Made by a program: the position numbers and the translations under genes. The notes under the pieces were generated by a model. That model did no database searches. It was not told where the DNA came from and saw only the letters and a list, made by a program, of their open reading frames with translations. A DNA stretch of 64,000 nt, taken from the NCBI GenBank assembly GCA_964016885.1, contig OZ024743.1, forward strand, positions 301,568,001 through 301,632,000, read 5' to 3'. This DNA is from Eledone cirrhosa. Lineage: Eukaryota. Positions 3,541 through 53,536 of this stretch are shown piece after piece. Each line of letters opens with the position of its first letter. Position 1 is the stretch's first letter.

Positions 3541-5123
3541 CATCCAGGAGATAGCTAATTCCATACACCAGAGTGAAACTGTAACTATCGACTACCCTTC
3601 GAAACAACCTAACAGTAGAATACTTGTATTAGACACGGGACTCTGGATTAACACTACAGACGAGAGGGCCCAAATTCTCCACTCATACTACGCTAAACAC
3701 ATGGCATCCAAATACCTGATACTAAACACTCAGCAGTGTACAGTAGTGCTAAGTTTAATATTCTTAACTCAGACTTGGTACGAGTGTTGAAGAACGTGTC
3801 CCGCATGTGCGACCCAACAGAAATGGAAAGACCTCCAACACTTCATCAACCGCATGAAGTTCTATCGCTACCACCAAAGAGACCGTATCAGAGTATACGC
3901 AGGAGCCACGGAGATGTATAAGACCCACATAGAACTGGATATGAAAGGAATTTGCCCATTATACAGGAGCAAAGCATGGAATAGATTAGATAGGACTTAC
4001 ATAAGCTATGGAAAGCCACCGCATGGTACGACAACCAGAGATACCAGAGTGTCATGTTCGTGGACGCTACCCCTGGAGGGAAATTAGCTAACAAGTGTAG
4101 AAAGGCCCTGAGAAATACCCACTTAAAGATTCAAGTGGTAGAAAAGCCAGGAACTACGATAAAATCCCTGATCAGCAAAACATACCCTTTTAATAAAACC
4201 CACTGTAATAATAGGAATTGTATTATATGTAAAGTAAACCCCCGGATAAAATGTAAAACTAGAAAGGTAGTCTATTGCACGAGATGTGCAGAGGCTACTT
4301 GCAGAAAGATGGCAACAACATACATAGGCGAGACAGTTCGTAGCATAGGTGAAAGGATAGACCAAAACTGGGGGGAACTAAAAGGACGAAAAAACGGTTC
4401 AGTAATATACAACATGGCGGTAACATAGACACCATAGAAATCAAAATAATATCTAAACATAAACATGACCCAGCAGATAGGCAAATCAGAGAGGCAAGTG
4501 AAATAGAACTTAGAAGGATAAAGATAGACAGAAAAAAAATAAATGGAATAACACCAACACCCAAACAAACAATACTGACCTAAGAGAAATATAAATAAGT
4601 AAATAAATATATATACAAGCACAATAACAACAAACACATAAAAACACACACTAGTAAACTAAGATAGAATACAATAACCAAAACACATACACCCTAACGC
4701 GAACACACACGAAACGCTATACATACATGCAAACGCATGCGCAAAGAAGACAAAAATAAATAAATAAATAAATAAATAAATAAAGAGATTAAATAAAGAT
4801 GGCGTAGATATACAATACAACAGCAGGAATATAATAGCACCACTAACGATGTTGCAGCGTGCAAGGAGAGACTTTGTTAGACTATATATACGTGTATGTG
4901 TCGATATTATAAGTGTTTTTTTTTTACCGTCGGTCAGTCAATGGTAAACATTGAGGAACGAATACATTAACTAATATAAAAGATACAGAAGCGAAAACCA
5001 ACGAAACAGTCAGTCTGTTCTGTTATTAATGCTGGCAATATTATTACAACAATATGACCCTCCTCAAGTATAACAATATATATATTTCGTTTCTGAATTG
5101 GCAACATGACCCTCCCAAAGCAT

Positions 5124-5660: not shown

Positions 5661-5710
5661 AAGAAGAAGAAGAAGAAGAAGAAGAATTATTATTATTATT
5701 ATTATTATTG
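5630..5710. repeat. Compound (GAA)n(TTA)n microsatellite
   Basis: Directly visible. Confidence 0.95.
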
Positions 5711-8700
5711 CAGTTGCATTTATCTTGCTTTATGTTCATAGGAGTTATCACCAAGTCACAACCAGTGACCTCAAGAGACAACAAGGTCCGCCATGTTCAA
5801 GAAAGAACATACATACTCACACATGCATCATTATTGTTTAGACTTGTGATGTACTTATATTGACAGAATCTTCCTTAGTATATGGGCAGTTCCCATTAGT
5901 ACTATATTTTGTATTTCTCCTATACGCGGGTTTCCTGGGATTTGCGATAAGTAATCATTAGACCCCTTAGGTATCATTCCCAGAGCGCCTACAACCACTG
6001 GTATTGTTTTAGTTCTCAATTTCCACATTTTTCCAATTTCTATCTCCAGGTCCTTATACTTGCTCAATTTTTCAAATGTTTTTATAGATACATTCTTGTC
6101 TATTGGAACAGACATATCAATTAGCAGGCATACCTCTTTTTAAAGTCCTTCAATATTATATCAGGTCTATTTGCATCTATTTTTCGGTGTTTGGATGCTA
6201 AAGTTCCACAAGATTGAGATGTGATCTTTTTCAAGTATGGGAGGTGGTTGATCCTCCCACCAATTCTTATGATGGGGCAGGTCAAAATGCTTACACATTA
6301 TCCAATGTATGTATTGTGCAGCTCTGTCATGCCTGTTAAGGTATTCGGTTGGAGCTATAGGACTGCACATTGAAATTATATGGTCAATGGTCTCTGGTTG
6401 TTTTTTGCATACACGGCATAATGGGCTGCATCCATTTTTTATTGTGTTGGCTTGGTAATTTTTTTGTTGGCAGACACTGATCTTGTGCTGATATAATCAG
6501 TCCTTCAGTCTCCTATTTCAGTCCAGAGGATGCCAACCACTGATGGGTTAAAGTTTTGTCAACATCAGGATTCTTACCTCGCTCTGGGTATTTTCCATAC
6601 AGAGGCTTTTCTTGATGACATTGTAACTGTAGGTTACTACTGGTATGGCAAGCGTGTTTATGGCATCGATCCTATTCCTTGCATTAAATTCCGTTCTTAA
6701 GATTGCTCTTACTCTGCGGTAACATTCCTTCCTTATCCTTTCCCTCATTGTCGAGTGCTTGATTCCGTCTCCTTCACAAACACCTAGATATTTTTAAGTT
6801 TTTTCTTGATCAAATTCTCTTATCACGTTCCCCCGATCAAGATTAATGTCTGAACTCTTCAGCAGCTTTCCTCTGGTGAACGTTGCTTTGGCGCATTTAT
6901 CTAGTCCAAACTCCATTTTAATGTCATCACTGAACTGCTCCACAGTGGATAATAGCCCTTGCAATTGTTCATCATTTTTTGCAAATAGTTTCAGGTCATC
7001 CATGTAGAACAAGTGATTAATGGTTTTGTCATAGACTTTATATCCATGTTTTGTTTCATTGAGCATTTTACTTAATGGTATAAGTGCGATGCAGAATAAA
7101 AGCGGTGATAAAGAGTCACCCTGAAAAATTCCACAATTAATATTAACTTCTCCAGCTTCCAGTGATTTTGTTTCACTATTCAAAAGGAGTGTCGTTTTCC
7201 ATGTCTTCATACTAAATGACAAAAACCTCCTGATAACGGGGGATATTTTGAAAATCTCTAAACATTTTTCAATCCAACTGTGTGGCAAACTATCGAATGC
7301 TTTTTTATAATCTATCCAAGCAATCGATAGATTTTTGTGTCTATTATGACAATCTTCCATTATCATTTTGTTAATCAGAAGCTGATCCTTACAGCCACAT
7401 GAGCCTCGTTTACACCCTTTCTGCCCAATGGGAAATAGGTCATTTGTTATCAGGTGGTCATATGTGTATTTAGTTAGGACTGATGTTAACATTTTATACA
7501 TTGTGGTCAAGCAAGTTATCGGTCTGTAATTTTTGGGATTGTTCGTCTCATCATTCTTCGGAAGCAGGAATGTAATGCCGTTAACTAGCCATGATGGTAT
7601 CTTTTCTGGCTCCTTAACTATTTCATTGTAAAGTTGGGCTAACAACTAATGAGACTCTGTGAAGGCATTTATCCAAAAGTTTTGTATTTTGTCTTTTCCT
7701 GGGGATTTCCATTTGCTGGTTTTTCTTAGAGCCAAGCGCAACTGTTCAACTGTTATATTTTCCCATATTTGTTCCTCAAGGTGAGATGTATCTTTCATTT
7801 GTCTGTCTGTCCATGGGGCATGTATGTTATGAACTTTTTCTTCGGCCCAGATCTTTTCCCAGAATTCTTGCACTTCCTCCGTGGGTGGTATTGATTTAGC
7901 AGTTATTGTTGACTTACCAATTTTTCTGTAGAAGTTTCTTTGGTTGTTTTTGAACATATTATTGTCCTTATAGAATCTAGATCGTTTTTCAAAGCGCCTT
8001 ATACGAGCAGCTTTGGCCGACACTTTTTGCTTGATTTTTTCTATCAGCATGTCTGTGTCACATGTTGATTTTATACTGTACTCTTTTTCAATTTTCTACC
8101 TTTAGTTTGTTTAACATGTTCACCTACTTTATAGTTTGTTAAAATTTCTATGTCAGATCGGAGAAGGTTTATCTGGCGATTGATGTTCTCTTGCCAAGTC
8201 GATTTCTTGTGGGAATTCCTTTGGTTTTTCATCTTCACTCCACATAAGTGAGTGGTGACGTAAGCCGATGCATAATAGAGATGATTTAAATCAGTAATGT
8301 TTAGTTTGTTTGTGATGATAATTTTTTTGAGAATTAGTCTTGTGTATTATCGTTTGCTTCTGTTTGGAGTTCTCGATCTTAGGGAGGGTGTCTCGTTGCC
8401 CCATGTCAGATTCTTTCATTTTCATCCATTCGATCATAATTTCATCCTTCAAGTTGGCAAGTTCATTCTCATTCATTTCTTTATCATTTACGATCTCTTT
8501 ATTTTCATTTGGAGTTTCATCTTGAGCATGCACTCCCTCCACATTTTCGATCCTTTCTTTAATTTGTTCTGTTGCCAGTTATTCCGCCCAACCCTGGGAT
8601 TCGAAGTGTTACAATTTACCTCGATTTCACTGACACATGTTTTATTTTCCCTTCGCTGACTTTGTGCTAATAGCTTGATCTGATCAATTTCTATATCAGT

Positions 8701-8797
8701 TAGTAACTTTTTTCGTACAATATTTCTTCGTATATTGGATAGTTTGTTACTGTCAATATAGCCTCTGTTTTCGGGATGTTTCTTTTTCCAGTTGATA
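5710..8797 (-). mobile_element. R4/Dong-type RLE LINE copy 1 (5'-truncated, internally deleted pseudogene)
   Basis: ORF pieces with NYRPITCL, IDYKKAFDS, GIFQGDSLSPLLF, YMDDLKL, RHD and RLE C-terminus (K..KY.DL, IPVVVGALG). Flanked by (TAA)n on both sides. Confidence 0.9.
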
Positions 8798-8827
<30 letters not shown>

Positions 8828-8830
<3 letters not shown>

Positions 8831-11800
8831 AGTTGCATTTATCTTGCTTTATGTTCATACGAGTTATCACAAAGTCACATCCAGTGACCTCAAGAGACAA
8901 CAAGGTCCGCCATGTTCAAGAAAGAACATACATATTCACACATGCATCTTTAGTGTTTAGACTTGTGATGTAATTATATTGACAGAATCTTCCTTAGTAT
9001 ATGGGCAGTTCCCATTAGTACTATCTTTTGTATTTCTCCTATACGCGGGTCTCCTGGGATTTTCGATATGTAATCATTAGACCCCTTAGGTATCATTCCC
9101 AGAGCGCCTACAACCACTGGTATTGTTTTAGTTCTCAATTTCCACATTTTTCCAATTTCTATCTCCAGGTCCTTATACTTGCTCAATTTTTCAAATGTTT
9201 TTATAGATACATTCTTGTCTATTGGAACAGACATATCAATTAGCAGGCATACCCTCTTTTGAAAGTGCTTCAATAATATATCAGGTCTATTTGCATCTAT
9301 TTTTCGGTCTGTTTTGATGCTAAAGTTCCACAAAATTGAGAGGTGATTTTTTTCAAGTATGGGGGGTGGTTGATGCTCCCACCAATTCTTTTGATGGGGC
9401 AGGTCAAAATGCTTACACATTATCCAATGTATGTATTGTGCAGCTCTGTCATGCCTGTTTAGGTATTCGGTTGGAGCTATATGAGTGCACATTGAAATTA
9501 TATGGTCAATGGTCTCTGGTTGTTTTTTCCATACACGGCATAATGGGATGCACCCATTTTTTATTATGTTGGCTTGGTAATTTTTTGTTGGCAGACACTG
9601 ATCTTGTGCTGATATAATCAGTCCTTCAGTCTCCGATTTCAGTATTTCAGTCCAGAGGATGCCAACCACTGATGGGTTAAAGTTTTTTCAACATCAGGAT
9701 AGTTAGCTCGCTCTGGGTATTTTCCATACAGAGGCTTTTCTTGCCATTTCTTAGCCAGTTCCTGTAGCAGTTCTTTCTTTGCTGTTACTTTTACCTGCTT
9801 TGCTTTTTCTGTATTTTCCATTTCAGCAGTAAATGGGACTTCTGAAATTTGTAGTCCATTACTGTATCTTTGTGCATCTTTTGTAATGAAATATGATCTG
9901 TTGATGCTTTCGTGTTTCAAAACGAGTTTGATCATCCAATCATATGATTCCCTTAGATATGTAGATAATCCAATTGTTGCAGTTTTCAACGCAATGTCTA
10001 ACTGGATTAACCCACGTCCTCCTTCTTTCCTAGGGAGATATATTCTATCTATATCTGCCTTAGGGTGATGCATTCTGTGCATGGTTAAGAATTTTCGAAT
10101 TTATGTATCGAGCCTACGGATCTCTGTGCTTGACCAGTTGATGACATTGTAACTGTAGGTTACTACTGGTATGGCAAGCGTGTTTATGGCATCGATCCTA
10201 TTCCTTGCATTCAATTCCGTTCTTAAGATTGCTCTTACTCTGCGGTAACATTCCTTCCTTATCCTTTCCCTCATTGTCGAGTGCTTGATTCCGTCTCCTT
10301 CACAAACACCTAGATATTTGTAAGTTTTTTCTTGATCAAATTCTCTTATCACGTTCCCCCGATCAAGATTAATGTCTGAACTCTTCAGCAGCTTTACTCT
10401 GGTGAACGTTGCTTTGGCGCATATATCTAGTCCAAACTCCATTTTAATGTCATCACTGAACTGCTCCACAGTGGATATAGCCCTTGCAATTGTTCATCAT
10501 TTTTTGCAAATAGTTTCAGGTCATCCATGTAGAACAGGTGATTAATGGTTTTGTCATAGACTCTATATCCATGTTTTGTTTCATTGTGTATTTTACTTAA
10601 TGGTATAAGTGCGATGCAGAATAAAAGCGGTGATAAAGAGTCACCCTGAAAAATTCCACAACTAATATTTACTTCTCCATCTTCCAGTGATTTTGTTTCA
10701 CTATTCAAAAGGAATGTCGTTTTCCATGTCTTCATACTGAATGACAAAAACCTCCTGACAACGAGGGATATTTTGAAAATCTCTAAACATTTTTCAATCC
10801 AACTGTGTGGCAAACTATCAAATGCTTTTTTATAATCTATCCAAGCAATCGATAGATTTTTGTGTCTATTATGACAATCTTCCAGTACCATTTTGTTAAC
10901 CAGAAGCTGATCCTTACAGCCAAATGAGCCTCGTTTACACCCTTTCTGCTCAATGGGAAATAGGTCATTTGTTATCAGGTGGTCATATGTGTATTCAGTT
11001 AGGACTGATGTTAAAATTTTATACATTGTGGTCAAGCAGGTTATCGGTCTGTAATTTTGGGGATTGTTTGTCTCATCATTCTTCGGTAGCAGGAATGTAA
11101 TGCCGTTAACTAGCCATGATGGTATCTTTTCTGGCTCCTTAACTATTTGATTGTAAAGTTGGGCTAACAGCTCATGAGACTCTGTGAAGGCATTTATCCA
11201 AAAGTTTTGTATTTTGTCTTTTCCTGGGGATTTCCATTTGCTGGTTTTTCTTAGAGCCAAGCGCAGCTGTTCAACTGTTATATTTTCCCATGTTTGTTCT
11301 TCAAGGTGAGCTGTTTCCTTCATTTGTCTGTCTATCCATGGGACATGTATGTTATGAACTTTTTCTTCGGCCCAGATCTTTTCCCAGAATTCTTGCACTT
11401 CCTCCTTGGGTGGTATTGATCTAGCAGTTATTGTTGACTTACCAATTTTTCTGTAGAAGTTTCTTTGGTTGTTTTTGAACATATTATTGTCCGTATAGAA
11501 TCTAGATCGTTTTTCAAAGCGCCTTATACGAGCAGCTTTGGCCGACACTTTTTGCTTGATAGTTTCTATCAGCATGTCTATGTCACATGTTGATCTTATA
11601 CTGTACTTTTGTTTCAATTTTCTAAGTTTAGTTTGTTTAACATGTTCACCTACTTTATAGTTTGTTAAAATTTCTATGTCAGATCGGAGAAGGTTTATTT
11701 GGCGATTGATGTTATCTTGCCAAGTAGATTTCTTGTGGGAATTCCTTTGTTTTTTCATCTTCACTCCACATAAGTGAGTGGTGACTTTAGCCGATGCATA

Positions 11801-12345
11801 ATAGAGATGATTTAACTCAGTAATGTTTAGTTTGTTTGTGATGATAATGTTTTTGAGAATTATGTTAGTCTTGTGTATTATCTTTTGGTTCTGTTTGGAG
11901 TTCTGGATCTTAGGGAGGGTGTCTCGTTCCCCCATGTCAGATTCTTTCATTTTCATCCATTCGATCATAATTTCATCCTTCAAGTTGGCAAGTTCATTCT
12001 CATTCATTTCTTTATCATTTACGATCTCATTATTTTCATTTGGAGTTTCATCCTGAGCATGCACTCCCTCCACTTTTTCGCTCCTTTCTTTAATGTGTTC
12101 TGTTGCCAGTGATTCCGCCCCAACCCTGGGATTCGAAGTGTTACAGTTTACCTCGTTTTCACTGACACATGCTTCATTTTCCCTTCGCTGACTTTGTGCT
12201 ACTAGCTTGATCTGATCAATTTCTATATCAGTTAATAACTTTTTTCTTACAATATTTCTTCGTATATTGGCTAGTTTGTTACTATCAATATAGCCTCTGT
12301 TTTCGGGATGTTTCTTTTTCCAGTTGATATATGTTTGTTCTGTAT
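8828..12345 (-). mobile_element. R4/Dong-type RLE LINE copy 2 (same family as copy 1)
   Basis: ORFs 10427-12397, 10101-10469, 9639-10082 and 8974-9669 give RT, a degenerate zinc knuckle (CRVW...ETIDHIISMC), RHD and RPD...LIDMS. 3'UTR nearly identical to copy 1. Flanked by (TAA)n. Confidence 0.92.
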
Positions 12346-12379
12346 TTATTATTATTATTATTATTATTGTTATTGTTAT

Positions 12380-15300
12380 TCCTTGAATCTCAGTCATTGA
12401 TGTTGGTTAACTGGAAAGTCCGTTGGATTGAATATCAAGCCACTACCTGCAGCCTCAGATATTCAGGACGTATCGGAGGGTTCTTGCCGTTCCAAGCAAG
12501 CATGCCTTTTGAAGCGTTCCAAAAAGCGTGAAGGGGCCGATTTTCTTTAACCATCCCTGGAAACCTTTGGAGATAGTCCCCAGTGCGCCTATGACAATCG
12601 GGATCACTTTGACTTCATGGCAGTTCCAAATCCTTTTCACCTCCCACTTTAGGTCCTGGTATCGGTTAATTTTCTCCCTCTCCTTCTCTTGCACTCTCGT
12701 GTCGAACGGGCAGGCCACATCCACAATCAGGCACGATCTTTTTTCTTTGTCCACAACCACCAGGTCAGGTCTATTGTGTTCCAGTTTTTTGTCCGTCTGT
12801 ATCCTAAAATCCCACAGCACCTTCACCTGACTGTTCTCCATCACCGCCTCTGGCCTATGCTCATACCATTTCTCAGAATGTGGTAGATTGTTTACTTTGC
12901 ACAGGTGCCAGTGGATCACCCTGCCCATCACATCGTGTCTCCAGCCCTTATAGTGGGTCTGGGCTAGGTGTTTAACTCGGACACAATGTGAGCCACAGTC
13001 TCCTCTCTCTCTCCACAGATCCTGCACAGTGGGCTAGCCTCCTCCTTGTAGATATGGTGCTTCAACCACTTCGTTTTGAGGGCCTGCTCCTGCGCAGCCA
13101 TTAGCATTCCTTCTGTAGCCTTTTTGAGGTCTCCTCTTCTCAACCAGTTCCATGTCTGTGGATCTCTAAATTCAGTTTTCTCAAAGAAGGTACTATGAAG
13201 GGATTCTCCCTTAAGGCTGCTCTTCCTCCTTGATGTTATTTCCTCCTTGGGTATCCCCTGGCCTACTGTCCCCTCCTTCAGTACAGCTCTGAGCATTGGC
13301 TCCTTACTATAGGTCACGTATTTGTATAGGTTGTTTTTCTCCACCTGAACACAGTCCTCTATGCTGATAATACCTCTTCCACCCTCAGATCTCCTTAGGT
13401 AGAGTCTATCGACATCACTCCTCTTGTGGAACATGTTGTAGATAGTCAATAGCTTCCTAGTCTTCCTATCCATTTCTTTTTGTTCAGCAACATTCCATCT
13501 CAGAATTCCCGCACTGTACCTAATAATAGACACAGCTCGGGAATTTACTGCGCTTATGGCATTTCTGCTGTTCAGATGTGACTTCAATACGATCCTTACT
13601 CTCCGAATGTATTCAGTTCTTAACAATTCCTTCATTTTTTTGTTCTTTATGCCATCAGCCTCCAGAACGCCCAAATACTTGTATCCTTCCTCAGAGTCAA
13701 TTTCCTTTATCATCTCACCTGTTGGTATCTGGATCCCGTTACTTCTGCTCAACCTACCCCTCCTCATCACAATGACTCCACATTTACCAATACCAAACTG
13801 CATACATATATCACTGCTGAAAATACGGACAGTGTCAACAAGCACATCCAACTCCTTCTCACTTTTCCCGAAGAGCTTAAGATCGTCCATGAAGAGGAGG
13901 TGATTGATGGTAAGCTCTCCCCTTCCCAACTTGTATCCTGCTCTCACTTTTCGCAGCATAATGGTCAAGGGCATCAGGGCAAGGACAAACAACAGAGGGG
14001 ACAGGCTATCTCCCTGGAAGATACCTCTCTTGATCTTCACGCTTCCCAAGGATACTCCAGTTGATGTCAACTCTGTCTCCCAGGACCCCATACTCCTGCC
14101 CAGCAACTGTCTGATGTTATCTGCCACCCTGACGATCTCCAGGCTTTTTGTGATCCAGGAATGAGGCACCATGTCAAATGCCTTTCTGTAGTCTATCCAT
14201 CCCATGGCAAGATCAGTGTGTCTCCTCCTGCAATTCCCCATTACCATCTTATCAATAAGCAACTGGTCCTTTGTACCACGTGACTTCTTTCGGCATCCTT
14301 TCTGTTCGTCCGGCAACAAGTTGTTTGTGTGGAGGTGATCGTAGATTTCCTCAGACACAATGCTCGTCAACAGTTCCCACATTACGGGCAGACATGTGAT
14401 AGGTCTATAGTTGGTAACATCATTACCCTTGATTCGGTCTTTCATTATCAGAACTGTGGTACCTTTTGTCAACCACTCTGGCACCTCACCCGACACCAAG
14501 CAGTCATTGAACATGGCCGTCAGCTTCGGGTGGAGGGATGTTAAATGTTTAATCCAATACCCCTGCACACCATCTGGGCCTGGTGATTTCCAGTTGGTTA
14601 GTTTTTTGGCTTGCCCCTTAAGAGTTTCAACTGTGATACTCAAATCAGTCTGTTGCTGTGCCTGCTCACCGATCTCCCTCTGTACTGTCTCAATCCACCC
14701 TGCCTGGGCATTGTGTCTAACATCCTGCTCCCATATTCCTCTCCAGAATGTTTTAGCTTGTTCCGCCCCAGGGATCAAGTCGTTGCCTCTTTCTTTCCCC
14801 TCAAGCTGTCCAAACAGCATCTTCTGGTTGTTGTCGAACATGCGGTTCTGTTTATACTGACTGACTCTGTTCTCGTATCGCCTGATTTTGGCACTCTTTG
14901 CTACAATGCGTTGCTTCAATTCCTCTATGATAATATTTAGCTTTTTACTCCTAGTTTGGTATTTTATTTCCAGTCTATTTTTAGTGCCTATGTTTTTTAG
15001 TGTCCCATTCAGTAGTGACTCAAGCTTTTCTATGTCATTTCTCATTTCCCCGATTTGCCCACTCAGTCGCTTCTTCCACCACGGCTCTGCTCTTTCTTGT
15101 CTGTTGTTTCCTCTCGCTTTTATACCAAGTAGTTTCCTCACCGTATTTGCTGTTGCTTTGAGGATATTGTTGCACTGGTGAAGACTCCTCGCCTCAAGGT
15201 ATGGGATGACTTTGTTTACCTTAGCTGTTGTTTCTTTTAACTTTTTCCTGTCTACAAATCTTAGGTTCATAGGTCTCCCACTATCATTGTTCAACTCATC

Positions 15301-15667
15301 TACCACTAAATTTAGGATGTCAACCGAATTTTGTCCTAGCCCGTCAGCATTCATCTCCTCAGTGGCCGTATCTCTGTTCCAGGTATTATTTATCTCAGTA
15401 TTCAGATCATTGTCTGCTTCGGGTGGTTCCTCCGTTCTCAGGACCTCCTCACCTTCATTTCCCGCCGGCTCGCTTGTCTGGCATACTACACCCGCCATCT
15501 CCAAGCCATTCTCTCTGCTCAGTTCCTCCAGTTCCAGCTCGCTTATCCACCCATTAGTTCTTATTACCCGAGCCTGCCCGGCCAATATTTGTTCATCTAA
15601 TTTAAATAAACCAATCTCGTTCCAGATGTTATGCATCCGTCTCCTGTAGCCCCTCTCCTTGGGGTTA
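12380..15667 (-). mobile_element. R4/Dong-type RLE LINE copy 3 (different family, nearly intact ORF)
   Basis: 890-aa ORF 12964-15636 with RT (FMDDLKL) and CRIC...ETVAHIVS. One frameshift near 12970 into 12455-13027 (RHD, RPDLVV, DVACP). Flanked by (TAA)n. Confidence 0.93.
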
Positions 15668-15668
15668 A

Positions 15669-15719
<51 letters not shown>

Positions 15720-15929
15720 CTATTAATTATTTTTCCATTTCCTATAATCATATTCGACTTTGCTATACTAGAAGAGTACAACAGAAATGAAGGAAAGCTT
15801 AAACATATCCTCAATCTTATTCTGTCAGACAAAATGTACAAAAAACGTGGAAGATTCTGAAGAATTATATCAAGACGATAATCTATTGAAAATTGCACAC
15901 CAGAGGAAGATTAGTACATTGATGATGAG

Positions 15930-21299: not shown

Positions 21300-22045
21300 T
21301 ATATAAGAAATGCATAATCTGTAAACTAAGACCCATATTAACTGTAACACTAGAAATGTAGTATATAGCATAACATGTACTGAATAACAATGTAAAGATA
21401 AGAATATAGTGCACATAGGTGAGGCAGCTCTTAGCATAGGAGAACGGTTAAATGAACACTGGCGAGAATTCCAAGATAAAAAAGAATTATCAATACTCCA
21501 CCAACATGCTAAAATAGAACATAAGGGCAAATTAGAGAACATAGAAATATAAATTGAATCTACACACAGAACAGGCGCAATGTTTAGACAAATCACAGAG
21601 GCAATAAACATAAATGAACTCGAACCAAAATCAAACATGAATGGAATAGCAACATCACAACTTACAATTAAGGACAAAATGAAAACACACACACACATGG
21701 AACAAACAACCAACCAGTAACATGTAAATAAACAAATAAAGAAACAAATAAAAACACCCACAGACACCCGGATGTAAAACACACAAAAACAAGATGGCGT
21801 AGGACAGAACAAACAAGAGGCACAACACAAAAAAAATAAACCCCAGTCACTGAAGAGGTCACATAATGTGAGACGAACGAACTTTGACAATATATGAACA
21901 ACCGTCCGGTTATGGAACCAACCAACAAACCGGAAATTTATAAATTCTTAAATTTATGAATTAAATTTATGATAAATTGGAGTGAAAACATATGGTGCGT
22001 GTGTTTCTTATTAGCAACATGACCCTCGCAAAGCATAACAATATA
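21300..22045 (+). mobile_element. Penelope-like GIY-YIG 3' fragment with degenerate hammerhead (CTGAAGA at ~21850)
   Basis: Translation [20 protein letters not shown]...SILHQHA. 3' end GCAACATGACCCTCGCAAAGCATAACAAT matches 5100-5130. Confidence 0.72.
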
Positions 22046-24172: not shown

Positions 24173-25935
<1,763 letters not shown>

Positions 25936-30112: not shown

Positions 30113-30424
30113 TAAAATAAAATAATTAAGTCAAATATTTAAAATTTGACTTTGTTTATTAAAGGTGTACTGCTATATATATTTTGGTGACAGCCATCTT
30201 TGGCTGTGACCTCTTCAGGCAGTCCGAATTAGTGTGGTAGGGACGGGTACATTTCGGAGTATTGACGGAGTTAAACACTTCAACAACTTGTGTACCCGTT
30301 ACTACCGCACCAATTCGGACTGCTTGAAGAGGTAACAGCCATGGATGTCACCGAAATATATATAGCAGTACACCTTTAATAAACGAAGTCACATTTTAAA
30401 TATTTGTCTTAATTATTTTATTCT
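30113..30424. repeat. Foldback element with a hammerhead motif in each arm
   Basis: Arms ~30113-30252 and ~30290-30424: ACTGC-(C/T)TGAAGA-GGT.ACAGCC...GTCACC-GAAA-TATATA-TA-GCAGT. Other copies at 32675-32735 and 53420-53540. Confidence 0.85.
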
Positions 30425-31720: not shown

Positions 31721-32357
31721 AACATATCTCCACATTTCTGAAGACAGCATGTATATGTGAAGTGTGAAGGTATGTATATTTCCTCTGAAAATGTGTAATA
31801 TTTTTACATAGATCTATATGACATACATAGCAACACACATAGACACGATCGTAAAATAATGATTTTTTTAAATATAATGAACTTGTACTTTGTTTGTATT
31901 TCATTATTTCTATTAATTTATATATATATATATATATAACAATATGTAGTAAGAAACACAGTAAACCGTGTGTCTAAAATTACAAGGGTTGAAAAACCAC
32001 ATATGCTTGAAATATTTAACCAAGTAACAGACAGGATGACAAAATGAAAATAAAAATATATTATCATAATACAAACCGCCTCAATAACCATTATATATCT
32101 CGGACAGATTATCCCTAATCTGTTTCGCCCGGCTCAGTATTTATTTGTACTTTATACTTAGAGCTTAATGGTTACAGGGTTCTAATTCATATATATATTT
32201 CGGCTCTCTTACAGGATGAGCTATTAAGTTGTGCGTGTTGGACTGTTATTTCTGTTCAATACGCGCTTACCACGTTTGACTGGCGGCGCACGAGGTGATA
32301 AATTCATCTTTCTGTGTGAACGTTGGCAAATAGTGTTTGTGACATTTAATTGCAATT

Positions 32358-32433
32358 TCTCGCTGATGAAGCCCAGGATTATCTGTTACAAACACACTCA
32401 GGGCGAAACAGATTAGGGATAATCTGTCCGAGA
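32358..32433 (+). ncRNA. Complete type I hammerhead ribozyme (GUC site)
   Basis: TCTCG-CTGATGA-A-GCCC...GGGC-GAA-ACAGATTA-GGGA-TAATCTGT-C-CGAGA: 5 bp stem I, 4 bp stem II, 8 bp stem III. Confidence 0.88.
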
Positions 32434-32732: not shown

Positions 32733-32779
<47 letters not shown>

Positions 32780-32807
32780 TTTATATATATATATATAATT
32801 ATATTTA

Positions 32808-32856
32808 AGGGCGGTGCCCCAGCATGGCCTCGGCCGGATGGCTGAAACAGCTAAAG
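32808..32856 (+). mobile_element. SINE 3' tail fragment
   Basis: AGGGCGGTGCCCCAGCATGGCC...CTGAAACA resembles a SINE tail I recall from octopus sequence; inserted in (TA)n. Confidence 0.5.
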
Positions 32857-32879
32857 GTGTATATATATATATGTGTGTA

Positions 32880-32966
<87 letters not shown>

Positions 32967-33060
32967 CGGCTCTCTTACAGGATGAGCTACTAATTTTCAT
33001 AGAAAAAGCATATAACGATATGTGCTTTTACAATTCTCCAGAAAGGCCGGTAGATAGGTA

Positions 33061-33105
33061 AATATTGCTGATGAGTTGTAACAACAACGAAACTAGTTCA
33101 ATATT
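33061..33105 (+). ncRNA. Type I hammerhead ribozyme (tandem copy 1)
   Basis: AATATTG-CTGATGA-GTTGT-AACA-ACAAC-GAAA-CTAG-TT-CAATATT. Confidence 0.88.
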
Positions 33106-33529
33106 CCTTGTCTGGCTTTCTGTAGAATAGGGGGAAGGTGTTCCCCCGAAAAACCAGTATGACTCTAAAAACCGGTTTGTCTGTGTGTTTACATACAGAA
33201 TAGCTGGGCCGCTCACTGTAAAGCGACCAGTGAAAGACTTGGTACACCTACATATGTATACGTGTGTGTATTCATATACACACTAGTATTTCAGTATGCA
33301 TATGTAGATGTACATTTTTTAACTTAATTGTTTAAGCGTCAGTCATACAAAAGTGAGTTACAAACGAAGCGAAATTTAATTTCGTTTCGTTATTTGTTTT
33401 TATCGTCTCCGCTGAACCGGTGCGTACTCACACTCTATGCAAATTAGTCTGCCCACTACTAATTTTCATAGAAAAAGCATATAACGATATGTGCTTTTAC
33501 AATTCTCCAGAAAGGCCGGTAGATAGGTA

Positions 33530-33574
33530 AATATTGCTGATGAGTTGTAACAACAACGAAACTAGTTCAATATT
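33530..33574 (+). ncRNA. Type I hammerhead ribozyme (tandem copy 2)
   Basis: Identical to 33061-33105. Confidence 0.88.
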
Positions 33575-33911
33575 CCTTGTCTGGCTTTATGGAGAATAGG
33601 GGGAAGGTGTTCCCCCGAAAAACCAGTATGACTCTAAAAACCGGTTTGTCTGTGTGTTTACATACAGAATAGCTGGGCCGCTCACTGTAAAGCGACCAGT
33701 GAAAGACTTGGTACACCTACATATGTATACGTGTGTGTATTCATATACACACTAGTATTTCAGTATGCATATGTAGATGTACATTTTTTAACTTAATTGT
33801 TTAAGCGTCAGTCATACAAAGGTGAGTTACAAACGAAACGAAATTTAATTTCGTTTCGTTATTTGTTTTTATATATATATAAATATTTATATATATATAT
33901 ATGTTTGTATC

Positions 33912-34111: not shown

Positions 34112-35125
34112 TAGCTAACTCCTGAAGAATCCGAAGCTCTAGATATCCCATATTATGGGATGTCTTAAAATGCGCACGAAATCATGGTAGAGTTAATTAA
34201 ATATGTCCACATTTCTTCTAGTTTATTTTACACCTAATTATGTTTAGTTGACTGTACATATGGTCGATTTATACATGGTGTCGAAATATTCGATAAATAC
34301 TCAGTCGGAACCGCCCCGAAGGGGCTGCTTTCGGTTATTTGTCGGATATTTCCTCATAGGAGCCTTTATTATTATAGCTTGGTCTAATTTATTCTTTATA
34401 TTGTTAATTATGCTAATTGGGAGAGGAAACGGTATATATTTTATCTGGTGATTCTATATACATATTTTATGATATATAGCTCTGATTATTTAATTTATTA
34501 ATTCTTCATTGAGCCACAACGTGGCCCGTTGCAAAACATATATATCTATGACTTTATGTATATATATATATATGTAAACCTTTATATGTAATAATATGCC
34601 GTTAGGTTGAGATACAATTTGGCTGCATTAGGCTGCGCTTTCCAGTAAAAAGCCTACCAGCCGTAAGCAACTAATCACATCCTTTCTAACTTGACCGCTG
34701 CCACGTCACGATTCTTAGCCATTTTTGAATGTATCCTTGGCGCGATCACTTTGCAAAATTAATTGTCTAATTTGTAGCTACCTCCTGAAGAATCCAAAGC
34801 TCTAGATATCCCATGTAATCGGATGTCTTGAAATGCGGACAAAACCATGGTAGAGGTAATTAAATATGTACACATTTCTTCTAGTTTATTTTACACCTAT
34901 TTCTGTTTAGTTGACTGTATATCTGGTCGATTTATACATGGTGCCGAAATATTCGATAAATAGTCCGTCGTAGGGCTGCTTTCGGTTATTTGTCGGAGAT
35001 TTCTTCATAGGAGCCTTTATTCTTATAGCTTGGTCTAATTGATTTTTTATATGGTTAATTATACTAATTGGGAGTGCAAACGGTATATATTTTATCTGGT
35101 GATTCTATAGACATATTTTATGATA
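34112..35125 (+). mobile_element. Tandem ~663 nt repeat with two hammerhead motifs
   Basis: 34112-34475 is repeated at 34775-35125. CTGAAGA at 34122 and 34785, with a (T/C)CATGG stem III and GUA site. Confidence 0.8.
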
Positions 35126-35652: not shown

Positions 35653-35657
<5 letters not shown>

Positions 35658-36312
35658 AGATTTGAATGGATACAGTTTAGTTGAAAGGAATTTATTGACA
35701 CGTGTTTCTATAACAGTTACATAACCTAAAACAGCTATCTACAAACTTTTAGTTATGCAGACATTCAATATTTCAATGTTATTATTTACTGTCATTTCAT
35801 CAGAATAATATTACTGAGGACCTGTTTAGTTTTTATAGAGAATATTAGGAGGGAGGGGTGAAGTTGTTAGAAGAATAGTTGAAGGAGTGGTTTTTCGATA
35901 GCAGTGAGAATTCTTGGTGGCAGTGAGTAATTAGATTCCCATCTGTTGTTTTGACATTTTTTATAGAATATATTATTGGTTATTTTTCTAAATCTATAGA
36001 AGGATAAGAGATAGTAAAGATATGCGGAATCTAATTACTCACTGCCACCAAGAATTCTCACTGCTATCGAAAAACCACTCCTTCAACTATTCTTCTAACA
36101 ACTTCACCCCTCCCTCCTAATATTCTCTATAAAAACTAAACAGGTCCTCAGTAATATTATTCTGATGAAATGACAGTAAATAATAACATTGAAATATTGA
36201 ATGTCTGCATAACTAAAAGTTTGTAGATAGCTGTTTTAGGTTATGTAACTGTTATAGAAACACGTGTCAATAAATTCCTTTCAACTAAACTGTATCCATT
36301 CAAATCTTTCTA
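35653..36312. repeat. Near-perfect foldback (~285 bp arms) with an extended-stem-II hammerhead
   Basis: 35653-35939 is the reverse complement of 36026-36312. TTATT-CTGATGA(36162)-~88 nt stem II-GAAA-CACGTG-TC-AATAA. Confidence 0.9.
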
Positions 36313-36517: not shown

Positions 36518-37260
36518 GGGCGGGCAAAATTCCGGAGATCCATGGACGAGTTCTCTTGAGCGGTCTCTGTCCCTCATTATCGCTGCCATGTCCTGCGTCT
36601 CCAACAGACCAGTGTATGTCCTTAGGGCATCAACATACGTTAACCTTGGGCTTCCTTCTCCAGTGTGTCCATGTAGGGGCTCCCACATGAGCACTGTGTG
36701 CAATGTCACCTCTGGATGTCGGTGAGCATGTCCAGCTAACCTCAGTTTCCTCTGTGTCACTTTTGAGCTGACTTTTGGGAGGCTCCCATACAGCTCTGAG
36801 TCTTTCATCCTCAGTGTATACTGATTAATGTTCAGAGCCATCCTTATCATTATCGTGTAGCACCCATCCACCAGCCTGAGATGGAGAAGAAGCTCATGGA
36901 CAACCAGAACGGCTTAAAAGAGGGAATATCAACCACAGTCACATCCTGATACTGAGGAGGATATTAGAGGGAGCTAGAGAAATGTGCCTTCCTGCGGTCA
37001 TGGTTTTCATTGACTTTAGGAAGTTCTTACAGGCTTAGTGAATCCTCAAGAAGATAGTGGACCTGATATCACTGCTCTACATCAACACCAAAGCCCAAGA
37101 CATTACACTTGAAGGGATGACAGAGTTCTTTGAGATACTGGCTGGAGTGCTCCCTAACCTTTTATCATCGTAGTGGACTACTGTATGCGCTTGCACTGGA
37201 GAAACACTAGGACTCTGGCTTTACAGTGGCACCGGCTCAGAGCAGGAGAGTTAAGGCGAA
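36518..37260 (-). mobile_element. Short 5'-inverted copy of the RTE LINE at 1-2380
   Basis: 36518-36872 is the reverse complement of ~2008-2362. 36875-37258 is a same-strand, internally deleted match to ~1148-1587. Confidence 0.9.
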
Positions 37261-38655
<1,395 letters not shown>

Positions 38656-39297
38656 GATGTAAATTAGAAACATTGGGTCAACCACAACCCTATACACACG
38701 CTGGTAAATTCCGTTCAATGTTTTGCTATACGTGTATCAATTGAATTGTAACATCCGTATCGTCTAAATAGTGTATGTTTTGGTATATACACATCCATGT
38801 GCAGAGCAAATTGTTTGCTCGTATCGAACTGCGTATATGCCATTGTCCCGTTGAGAATCTGAGTCCCCGAGTCTGTGCGTGCAAGCACCCGCCATGTACA
38901 ATTAAATGGTTAATAGATTGAGATTAAAGGATAATAAAATAAAATAAAATAAAATAAAAAAATAAAATAAATAGTAACAAATAATAAAAAAAAATCTCTA
39001 GAGTTTAAAGCAGCTGCTATGTTTTTAGCTGGTATTGCGGGACCGGCAATGTCTCTTTATAATCAGTTCCTGATTATTACTGGAATTCTATAAGAATCCA
39101 AGATTTATAATTTTCAACAGACAAAGCGAGTGCTAAGCTCTGATGATTACCAACAGTATGAAACATATCTGTCAGCTTATCTTGTTTGTTGAAAAAAGAA
39201 TTAAGTGACATAGTCACTACTTTAAATTAATAGCGCAATGTCTTCAAAATGCTTTTAATTAGGCATACAGTATATTGTGAAATATACTGTACATACA

Positions 39298-39355
<58 letters not shown>

Positions 39356-39367
<12 letters not shown>

Positions 39368-40172
39368 AAGAATCAAAGAACTGTTCAAAACATTATTGTG
39401 CTTACAGCTGTTTCCTCCAAACCGAGGTTTGGATTCTTCGGAGCAATTTATTAATGCATGGACAGTTATATGACCTCCTTTTCAGCCGAGTGACATACCA
39501 ATACATATTCAAACATTGATACATATTCAAACATTGTGGGTCAACATTCATTACAAAATTTAGAGTGGCAGTACACACTTCGAGATTACATTTATATTAA
39601 TAGGTACAATCAAAAATCAAAGATATAGGTTAAAGTACAACATGAAGATAAGTGGTTATATAGTGCAAATGTTATATGTGTGGCACGCATGTGCGTCTTG
39701 TTTATATAGTGTGGCAGAGAGATATGTGTGGTAGAGGCACTTAGGTAGGTAAATAAGAGTGTTAGGTTGGTTCTTATTTACCTACCTAAGTGCCTCTACC
39801 ACACATATCTCTCCGCCACACTATATAAACAAGACGCACATGCGTGCCACACATATAACATTTGCACTATATAACCACTTATCTTCATGTTGTACTTTAA
39901 CCTATATCTTTGATTTTTGATTGTACCTATTAATATAAATGTAATCTCGAAGTGTGTACTGCCACTCTAAATTTTGTAATGAATGTTGACCCACAATGTT
40001 CGAATATGTATCAATGTTTGAATATGTATTGGTATGTCTCTCGGCTGAAAAGGAGGTCATATAACTGTCCATGCATTAATAAATTGCTCCGAAGAATCCA
40101 AACCTCGGTTTGGAGGAAACAGCTGTAAGCACAATAATGTTTTGAACAGTTCTTTGATTCTTATATTTCATA
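39356..40172. repeat. Near-perfect foldback (~400 bp arms, ~13 nt loop) with U4C hammerheads
   Basis: Arms meet at AGGTAAATAAGA-gtgttaggttggt-TCTTATTTACCT. TGCT-CCGAAGA-ATCCAAACC-TC-GGTTTGGAG-GAAA-CAGCTG-TA-AGCA at 40085-40131, mirrored at 39399-39445. Diverged third copy at 40447-40495. Confidence 0.92.
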
Positions 40173-40689: not shown

Positions 40690-41114
40690 TATATAATAAA
40701 GAAGAAATTAAAAGATAGTTAAAAGAGTACCATATATTTTATTATGCATATTTCGAATACAATATCATCCTGGGACAAACATTGTGTTCTCCTCAGATAA
40801 AATAAGGTAACATGATAAGAGGCATAATAGCACGTGTTTACAGTAAAGTGGTAATTCTACATATCAGTAGACTTAGCACTTTCCTGTAAACAAGTGCTAT
40901 TAAGCCGCTTACCAGGTTACATTATTTTATTTGATGAGAACACAATTTCTGTCCCAGGATGATTTTGTATTCGAAATGCGCATAATAAAATATATGGAAC
41001 TCTTTTAGCCATCATTTATTTTATTCTTCATTATATATACTCCACTTCTACCAACTGTTGAGTGCTACTTATCTGACATATGCATAGTTCTATTGTTCTA
41101 CAATATTACTCACC

Positions 41115-46155: not shown

Positions 46156-46960
<805 letters not shown>

Positions 46961-47397
46961 TTATCTGTTTATGTATTTATTTTTTTTTGTTTATCTTCTT
47001 CTCTGCGCATGCGTTTGCGTGTGTGTATAGTGTTTGGGTGATTAAATAAAGATGGCGTAGATATACAATACAAGAGGAGGACATAATAATAGCACCACTG
47101 ACGATGTTGCAGATGTGCAACGAAAGAACTTTGTTAGACTATATATATGTTTTTGTGTATATATTATATCTGTATTTTTTTACATTTGGTCAGTCAATGG
47201 TAAACATTGAGAACTGAATAAATTAACTGATATAAAATATAGAGAAGCGAAAACCAACGAAACAGTAAGTGTGTTCTGTTATTAATTCTGGCAATATTAT
47301 TAGAGCAATATGAACCTCCCCAAGTATAACAATATTGTTTCGACACCGATTTCATATCTAATAACCTGCGCAAACAATATATATATATATATATATA

Positions 47398-47745
47398 TTA
47401 GAAAGTGAGGTTTTTTTACAAAATGAAAAATAACCGAGGTGTCCTACACGAGTGAAAGTATAAAGAAAAATAGATGAAATCGAAAATGTAACTGGAGTCT
47501 TATTTTTAAAAAATATATATATATTTATTTGGTTCCTTTACCGGTTTCGCAGTTCTTTTGCTTTTCAAAAGGTGAGTTGAGATGGAGGGTCTGTGGTGTT
47601 TCTCACATCTGATGTGAGAAAAACCACAGACCCTCCATCTCAACTCACCTTTTGAAAAGCAGAAGAACTGCGAAATAGGTAAAGGAACCAAATAAATATA
47701 TATATTTATTTTTTTAAATAAGACTCCAGTTACATTTTCGATTCC
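47398..47745. repeat. Foldback made from the terminus of the Penelope-like element at 24340-24560
   Basis: 47398-47610 matches 24340-24550. Hairpin centred at ~47610. TTGAAAA hammerheads at 47535-47572 (-) and 47648-47685 (+). Confidence 0.88.
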
Positions 47746-47799
<54 letters not shown>

Positions 47800-51194: not shown

Positions 51195-51202
<8 letters not shown>

Positions 51203-52007
51203 AGAATTAATATCTAGTAACATATATATACATACAGATGCATATCAATGCTAGCAAATATATAGGTTTTGTCTTAGTAACTTTGTGGTTCAATGCATGG
51301 GGTTGCAGAACAATAATATGAGAGATGTAAAATAAGAAAATTATAAAATTTAACTTACTTACTGAAATATCACTTCCAACTAATTAGTTTCTGAAATGGA
51401 ATAAATATATTTTCCGAAGAAAACATAGAGAATCATTTCGTCGTCAGTAAGTTAATTTTATAATTTTCTTATTTTACATCTCTCATATTATTGTTGTTCT
51501 GCAACCCCATGCATTGAACCGCAACGTTACTAAGACAAAACCTATATATTTGCTAGCATTGATATGCATCTGTATGTATATATATGTTTCTGGATATTAA
51601 TTCTTTATAATTATCTCCAAATTATTTGTCCAGCAATATTGGCCATGACTGCTGCTATGGTAGCAGGCGGGCCGCTGTCTTATTAGCGATCCACTTTCCA
51701 CTGATTGACCTCGATGTCACGTGATTGATTCTTTTTGAATTTGCCACCGACGCAGAGGCAGTGCATTTCTCAATGGCTAGGAATTCAGTCCACGCTTTGC
51801 TATTTTCTATCCACTGAATTATTTTTGAATAAGTTTCCAGAGTCCACGCTTTGCCTGGATACTTAGATGAGAATAGTCTTCCCTGACGACGAAATGATTA
51901 TATATGTTTTCTTCGGAAAATATATTTATTGCATTTCAGAAACTAATTAGTTGGAAGTGATATTTTAGTAAGTAAGTTAATTTTATAATTTTCTTATTTT
52001 ACATCCG

Positions 52008-52602: not shown

Positions 52603-53340
52603 TTGGGGAGGGTCATATTTGTGTAATATTGCCAGAATTAATAACAGAACAGACTCACTGTTTGGTTGGTTTTCACTTCTAGCTTCTGTGTCTTTTATAT
52701 CGGTAATCTAACTTACTCGGTCCTCACTGTTGCCATTGACTGACCGACGATCAAAAATAATACAGATACAATATAGACACAAACACATATATATAGTTTA
52801 TCATAAATCTTTCGTTGCACATCTGCAACATCGTCAGTGGTGTTATCGTTTCCTCCTGTTGTATTATATGTCTACGCCATTTTTATTCAGTCTGTCTATA
52901 TATTTATTTATTTATTTGCTTGTTTGTTTATTTTATTTTGTCTTCTTTGCGCATGCGTTTGCGTGTGCGTATAGTGTTTTGTTTGCTGGGTGATGGGTGA
53001 CTAGTGTGTGTTTATGTGCTTGTTGTTATTGTGTTTGTGTATGTATTTATTTATTTATTTATTTATTTATTTATTTTATTTTATTTTATTTACTTATTTA
53101 TACTTCTGTTAGGTCAGTGTTGTTTTTGTGGGTGTTGTTGTTATTCCATTCATTCTTTCTGTTTAGTCTTGGCCTTCTAATTTCTATTTCACTGGCCTCT
53201 CTGATTTGCCTATCTGCTGTGTCATTTCTATGTTTAGATATTATTCTAATTTCTATGTTGTCTATGTTACCGTCATGTTGTTGTCTAGCATGTTCGTATA
53301 GTACTGACCCGTTTTTTCGTCCTTTTAGTTCCCCCAGTAG
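52600..53340 (-). mobile_element. Penelope-like 3' fragment (same family as 3540-5130)
   Basis: GELKGRKNGSVLYEHARQQH...DRQIREASEIEIRRPRLNRKNEW; non-coding end matches 4560-5120. Confidence 0.85.
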
Positions 53341-53536
53341 ACCTATAAGAGGTACACCTGGCATATCAGAGTATTGACAAAATTATACACCTGAACAACA
53401 TATGTACTTGTCTATACCACAATAATTCGGACTGCCTGAAGAGGTCACATCCAAAGATGGCTGTCATCGAAATATATATAGCCGTAATAAACGAAGCTAA
53501 ATTTTAAACATTTGACTTGTTTATTCTATTTTATTT

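Follow-up and report, generated by a model that had tools for sequence, protein, structure and literature searches.

The tandem repeat E1, which lies near the middle of the window (the whole 64-kb stretch of DNA analysed here), is, judging from its sequence, a recent insertion of a non-coding repeat with two predicted self-cutting hammerheads, and it very probably belongs to the metazoan non-LTR retrozymes, a class already described. In particular, the reading favoured here, at somewhat better than even confidence, is that of a young retrozyme insertion produced via a hammerhead-released circle and a Penelope-like RT; the repeat itself, its relatives and its junctions with the flanking DNA provide the evidence considered below.

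The tandem array and its hammerheads

The features of the array are the following.

32987..33872, plus strand: E1, a 1.89-mer of a 469-nt non-coding unit (TRF: period 469, 1.9 copies, 99%)
33050..33121, plus strand: type I hammerhead 1, core 33068-33098, GUU site, predicted cut after 33098 (Rfam HH9, 38.6 bits, E 3.4e-7)
33519..33590, plus strand: type I hammerhead 2, core 33537-33567, predicted cut after 33567 (Rfam HH9, 38.9 bits, E 2.7e-7)
33099..33567, plus strand: predicted monomer or circle, folding into multiple hairpins that the long helix I closes (-160.2 kcal/mol linear, -155.9 circular)

The initial annotation had described near-identical, ORF-less 469-nt direct repeats containing two identical intact hammerheads, and this description stands: the units differ by four substitutions in 417 shared nt, none of which falls within either hammerhead core, the cores are identical with starts at 33068 and 33537, that is 469 nt apart, and the circularised monomer (GC 37.7%) has no ORF of at least 35 aa beginning with ATG, its longest stop-free stretches being 57 codons on the plus strand and 84 on the minus strand. 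The array begins 112 nt ahead of the first predicted cut and ends 305 nt beyond the second. Seven letters are common to both units and unlike the majority of the contigs from sequencing run X1, while each unit has two private changes; therefore, both units descend from a single template, copied twice and then aged.

Both Rfam matches fall under the HH9 gathering score of 52, no Rfam match in the whole 64-kb window attains the gathering score of its own model, and a strict type I scan returned just these two sites per 64 kb and none in 200 block-wise dinucleotide shuffles; neither Rfam nor the scans detected a minus-strand ribozyme in the unit. Rfam miRNA matches in the window were discarded as artefacts of (TA)n and hairpins. 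The stem lengths proposed initially, 7 bp for stem I and 5 bp for stem II, are refined by the HH9 model to a helix I of 6 bp followed by a bulge and a long distal arm and a helix II of 4 bp with a 6-nt loop. Helix III is reduced to one pair capped by a palindromic tetraloop (ACUAGU) and, because of this single pair and its palindrome, cleavage of E1 would probably need a dimer. The further proposal that the two palindromes dimerise in cis describes a topologically possible, nested arrangement, but one that is not favoured, the dimer pairs of helix III having a probability <0.01. In fact, nearest-neighbour folding, in a model that leaves out tertiary contacts, favours two separate, mis-paired hammerheads: for 33030-33640 the cis dimer and two open monomers differ by 0.6 kcal/mol or less, and for the full array by 3.7 kcal/mol or less. 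Both structures are some 5 kcal/mol or more less stable than the ensemble with mis-paired cores, the gap for the active dimer being about 5 kcal/mol, or 8.5 kcal/mol for the full array.

As regards the cleavage site, GUU fits the NUH rule yet is outside the best triplets according to the available text of PMC9217987, is entered merely as cleavable in PMC3138052, and GUU data are absent from PMC1636495. In Xenopus, one of nine predicted dimers was cleaved in vitro, as given in the accessible part of bioRxiv 10.64898/2026.07.22.740005. Self-cleavage activity of the E1 hammerheads is thus no more than plausible. The predicted monomer is strongly folded (z -9.7, for a 1-nt-shifted monomer, a value reached by none of 100 shuffles); the minus strand likewise folds well (z -8.3), for which reason the fold was rejected as evidence on the strand. 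The E1 family would be a fair candidate as a source of circular RNA, and a circular intermediate appears on balance probable.

Relatives, family variation and conserved blocks

Self-comparison of the window revealed two relatives of E1.

37259..38085, plus strand: E2, two hammerheads 504 nt apart, GUA site, U-U at the base of helix II (71% identity to E1)
46198..46964, minus strand: E3, about 1.3 units carrying a single degenerate hammerhead (GGAA) (69% identity to E1, 88% to E2)

The three arrays in 64 kb have each a different combination of start and end, so that E1, as had been suggested, is a young, dispersed and permuted hammerhead repeat that goes beyond a simple local duplication. Across the four hammerheads of E1, E2 (E2a and E2b) and E3, both partners have changed in 6 of the 15 pairs, and pairing is kept in 93% of cells, a result matched by 2 of 500 shuffles and compared with at most 53% in slid controls; E2 and E3 being close kin, this covariation is essentially one contrast between about two independent lineages. 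Conservation extends to the ACUAGU palindrome and to the bases of loop and bulge, and the compensatory changes indicate that the hammerhead fold is maintained by selection in E1-E3. With a covariance model built on the four hammerheads no additional close relatives came to light, and there was one weak separate match, at 39116; the latter is a lone canonical-looking type I hammerhead (39116-39192) of another family, which scores 20 bits with model R1.

The family also occurs in six public sequencing runs from three studies and three organisms, none of which is listed as RNA, so that they bear in no way on expression; contigs were compared from four of them (X1, X3, X5 and X6) and are uninformative on RNA ends, strand or level. 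The contigs aligned to E1 number 938 in X1 (403 at 99% identity or more, 309 at 95-99%, 178 at 90-95% and 48 under 90%), 15 in X3, 10 in X5 and one in X6, the last covering 15 of 30 bins; summed depth, which rises to 6.8e5 in X1, does not correspond to copy number, and X1 or X3 may stem from the same source as the window. The head-to-tail joint is found in three of the four runs (X1, X3 and X6), and pieces of the unit occur in two further organisms, with low depth and possible contamination in X5 and X6. Since the aligned contigs contain no variant rows within 33521-33588, the hammerhead core with its GUU site appears to be the family norm, as far as covered. Seventeen variants were examined (18 rows minus one that separates the two window units) and 14 are at paired positions, where 12 preserve pairing, four of these forming two compensatory pairs, and 2 break a pair; single-sided variants preserve pairing in 8 of 10 cases (P 0.055). 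A 25-base family pattern had no matches in viral contigs or in metagenome contigs, and two loci retrieved with a looser pattern were dropped as having no sequence similarity to the window. A locus of the collection (L002, 2751-2789) contains a type I hammerhead that is unrelated to those of E1 yet has their ACTAGT palindrome, with motifs resembling CCAAT and TATA ahead of it.

Outside the ribozyme, two blocks are conserved.

33400..33406, plus strand: TTATCGT block, a 7-nt run invariant in E1, E2 and E3; its equivalent at 33872 is the E1 3' end and the homologous point is the E3 3' end
33434..33484, plus strand: candidate internal promoter or RT-recognition hairpin, with the octamer ATGCAAAT at 33437-33444, an inverted octamer-like copy at 33462-33469 and ATATA at 33479-33483

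The octamer ATGCAAAT is contained in the longest run invariant over E1, E2 and E3, which at 12 nt exceeds every block of the core (permutation P 0.007, post hoc and alignment-dependent); the inverted octamer-like copy and ATATA come after it, about 25-30 nt ahead of the start of helix I. The octamer hairpin shows no covariation and, for this reason, a DNA site and an RNA signal are indistinguishable here; the block may be an internal promoter. In the first unit of E1 the block is truncated and ATGCAAAT is absent: if the block were a promoter, the intact copy would transcribe only hammerhead 2, and circles would need read-through. Because its first unit is without the conserved octamer, the E1 locus may be a dead-end copy, and it is doubtful that the locus itself yields a circle. 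The literature search found no paper on octamers in hammerhead repeats and nothing relevant on octopus hammerheads.

Junctions and surrounding DNA

The DNA adjoining E1 comprises three features.

32734..32964, no strand: left interrupted (TA)n copy with an extra 62-nt piece, a probable target-site duplication, its two interruption motifs being confined to both flanks
32965..32989, plus strand: P1 piece of 25 nt, joined to E1 via a 3-nt CTA microhomology and matching 32199-32230 of the upstream hammerhead repeat P1
33873..34105, no strand: right interrupted (TA)n copy, into which the E1 3' end runs

The 3' ends of E1, E2 and E3 all enter (TA)n, sharing a few bases with it; those of E1 and E3 are the identical point inside the 7-nt invariant block, and E2 ends about 75 nt earlier. 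The conserved TTAT/CG site is therefore the shared 3' end of E1 and E3, and the ends are non-random. A distance of 5 nt separates the 5' end of E1 from that of E2, E3 starts about 265 nt earlier, and all three adjoin pieces of other retroelements, which in the case of E2 is an RTE-like LINE piece. Since none of the three copies ends at the predicted cut and each spans it, the template would have been a circle or an uncleaved multimer. The permuted array had been considered to be what reverse transcription around a circle would give; E1 does begin and end mid-unit and the three copies do differ in their combinations of start and end, but a linear multimer left uncleaved would yield such a pattern as well, the 3' ends recur at one conserved site and the 5' ends of E1 and E2 nearly coincide. 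Among the 26 contig pieces listed, beyond which there are 957 more, at least three end at 33403 and at least two at 33329, and one loose contig end near there continues as (TA)n; the depth of X3 falls by 28% at 33403 (from 233.5 to 167.7), a hint only, as a variant would do likewise. Single contigs have further junctions at 33228, 33433 and 33504.

Two interruptions of the (TA)n are found on either side of E1 and nowhere else, with their order preserved, and no other pair with a common distinctive interruption was found among 51 interrupted tracts; this arrangement suggests a long target-site duplication around E1. The duplication is imperfect and its limits are not sharp, the class being defined by target duplications of >4 bp when these are present, and the right flank is without the 25-nt P1 piece expected of a clean target duplication; its absence there calls for a later deletion or a template switch. 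A 62-nt GC-rich piece at 32800-32859, present only in the left copy, may resemble the 3' part of a cephalopod SINE; the literature gave nothing relevant on this motif.

The window is animal-like DNA rich in LINE relics and (TA)n tracts. P1 (31937-32990), which directly adjoins E1, is an unrelated hammerhead repeat with a canonical GUC type I hammerhead at 32363 provided with a long helix III, a 467-nt period, a 192-nt inverted 5' copy (97%), a fold z of -4.8 and an anatomy in the style of Penelope-like elements (PLEs). Just past the right (TA)n, 34112-35122 contains a pair of copies (89%) spaced by about 663 nt; their CTGAAGA motif resembles a hammerhead core but failed the hammerhead scans. 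Long inverted repeats (83-98%) are located beside (TA)n at 30116-30422, 35655-36310, 39361-40169, 40690-41037, 47474-47747 and 51197-51610; several have hammerhead-like cores, and they probably represent inverted 5' ends of PLEs. Relics of broken Penelope-like ORFs, which show Cys-linker/GIY-YIG-type motifs, are found at 3560-4430, 21300-21700, 25383-25760 and 52990-53400, of which Pfam supports only 25383-25760 (GIY-YIG, E 1.6e-6). An open frame of 920 codons that includes an RT domain (E 3e-21) extends over 12964-15726, next to a pair of LINE copies (5686-12406) that are 96% identical.

Class, mechanism and rival explanations

Metazoan non-LTR retrozymes are known from many animals according to the available text of PMC7229834 (Cervera and de la Pena 2020) and bioRxiv 10.64898/2026.07.22.740005. 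As described in the former, each of their tandem units lacks an ORF and carries a type I hammerhead, GC is <50%, the monomer is highly self-paired, target duplications are long and PLEs coexist with them. E1 is like them in these respects, its own target duplication being a probable one; its 469-nt unit is just over the 150-450 bp given there and within the 51-972 bp given in the latter. Every testable class-defining feature that was examined is present, apart from the target duplication, which is equivocal: a type I hammerhead per tandem unit, a short head-to-tail ORF-less unit of low GC, a highly self-paired monomer, dispersion in multiple copies (the three arrays in the window and the 938 X1 contigs) and coexistence with PLEs (the GIY-YIG relic, and the Cys-linker relics by translation). 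A plant LTR retrozyme is excluded by the type I topology and the head-to-tail units, the plant elements having type III hammerheads in LTRs that flank a unique centre, and viroid-like symmetric rolling circle replication is excluded as no minus-strand ribozyme was detected in the unit and the element is genomic.

The closest likenesses in form are the axolotl HHR_Amex1 and newt satellite 2, which share the one-pair helix III with its palindromic tetraloop and are active mainly as dimers, whereas the E1 unit is longer and has a GUU site, and its host is, by its repeat content, probably an invertebrate; the U-U at the helix II base of E2 recalls HHR_Amex2. The Schistosoma Sm-alpha hammerhead SINE-like repeats (PMC6765202, as far as its available text goes) resemble E1 in that a promoter, in E1 a candidate one, is followed by a hammerhead; in such an arrangement each unit drives transcription of the one downstream, and a solitary copy is dead. 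Those repeats are transcribed by Pol III. The E1 unit has T5 and T6 runs, which would stop Pol III, and no tRNA genes were found in the window. An internal Pol II promoter of the snRNA type is present in newt satellite 2 (PMC2220036, available text). Metazoan retrozymes are apparently without promoters or conserved motifs in the accessible part of a 2020 review from the group behind PMC7229834 (PMC7761336), an account from which the E1 clan differs in its two conserved non-ribozyme blocks.

In the favoured mechanism, some copy of the family would give a multi-unit transcript, from which paired hammerheads, dimerised through ACUAGU, would free the 469-nt monomer to be closed by a host ligase, as expected from the class. 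The endonuclease/RT of a Penelope-like GIY-YIG element would then nick (TA)n, at the junctions that are observed, and would prime at a U/A-rich RNA linker, preferentially TTAT/CG, with a few bases pairing. The RT would proceed 1.89 times round one template, the single template being observed and the circle presumed; a 3-nt microhomology would join the target and a long target duplication would be left, in keeping with the duplicated flank. The helper is probably a Penelope-like element, because relics of these occur in the window and a (TA)n bias with tandem and inverted insertions is described for PLEs (PMC8557442, available text).

The same PLE-mobilised non-autonomous repeat could instead have been copied from uncleaved linear multimers that start at a defined place near 33456-33505 and prefer certain 3' ends, in which case circles would be rare or irrelevant. 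This explanation, which is judged unlikely, accounts for the 5' ends of E1 and E2, for the identical 3' ends of E1 and E3 and for the conserved promoter-like block, and the weak helix III with its unfavoured dimer makes slow cleavage plausible; on the other hand, the 5' end of E3, the 3' end of E2 and the contig junctions at 33228, 33433 and 33504 lie elsewhere, E1 reaches 5' of the start that it supposes, and characterised members of the class accumulate as circles. It is improbable that the unit is a pseudo-LTR (pLTR) or 3' end of an autonomous Penelope-like element, with E1 as a pair of heavily 5'-truncated copies. PLEs and their pLTRs do form partial tandems at (TA)n targets, carry hammerheads and occasionally have an inverted 5' piece (available text of PMC8557442 and bioRxiv 10.64898/2026.07.22.740005), retrozymes are related to pLTRs according to the latter source, and one X3 contig has an inverted piece of the unit before 33433. 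An inverted 5'-truncated copy is absent at E1-E3, though, and unlike PLEs E1 has no RT or GIY-YIG ORF: no ORF lies in or beside any of the three copies, these have no similarity to the PLE relics of the window, in which no parent element was found, nor was an RT plus GIY-YIG ORF between pLTRs, that is, an autonomous element. Moreover, the best-supported 14 of 55 loose ends have no common continuation into an element body, and the geometry is that of full helices I and II rather than the minimal PLE form.

Two other readings are very improbable. That one old insertion was duplicated in tandem on the spot, or that the array is a passive satellite, would fit two near-identical adjacent copies between slippage-prone (TA)n, but this is largely refuted by the two other arrays with different permutations, by the presence of the joint in three of four runs and by the duplicated flank, which encloses the entire array. 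A non-autonomous DNA rolling-circle (Helitron-like) element carrying a hammerhead by chance would fit the hairpin-rich, tandem structure, the AT-rich targets and the good folding of both strands; Helitrons generally have fixed ends and are not known to duplicate their target, whereas E1 and its relatives have variable ends with microhomology, a duplicated flank and a covarying hammerhead.

As a retrozyme insertion, E1 extends a described phenomenon to one further animal lineage and represents a clean test case, being young and having junctions that can be read, the signature of a single template and a duplicated flank, while its two diverged relatives expose conserved blocks outside the ribozyme. 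Should these blocks serve as promoter and as entry site of the RT, they would bear on how non-LTR retrozymes are transcribed and mobilised. It is tentatively proposed that the clan is a self-promoted animal retrozyme, in which a Pol II promoter made of the octamer pair and the TATA-like element would start at the foot of helix I and the TTAT/CG site would be the priming site where a (TA)n-targeting Penelope-like RT enters the circular template; if true, this would provide sequence handles on how animal retrozymes are transcribed and on which RT copies them.
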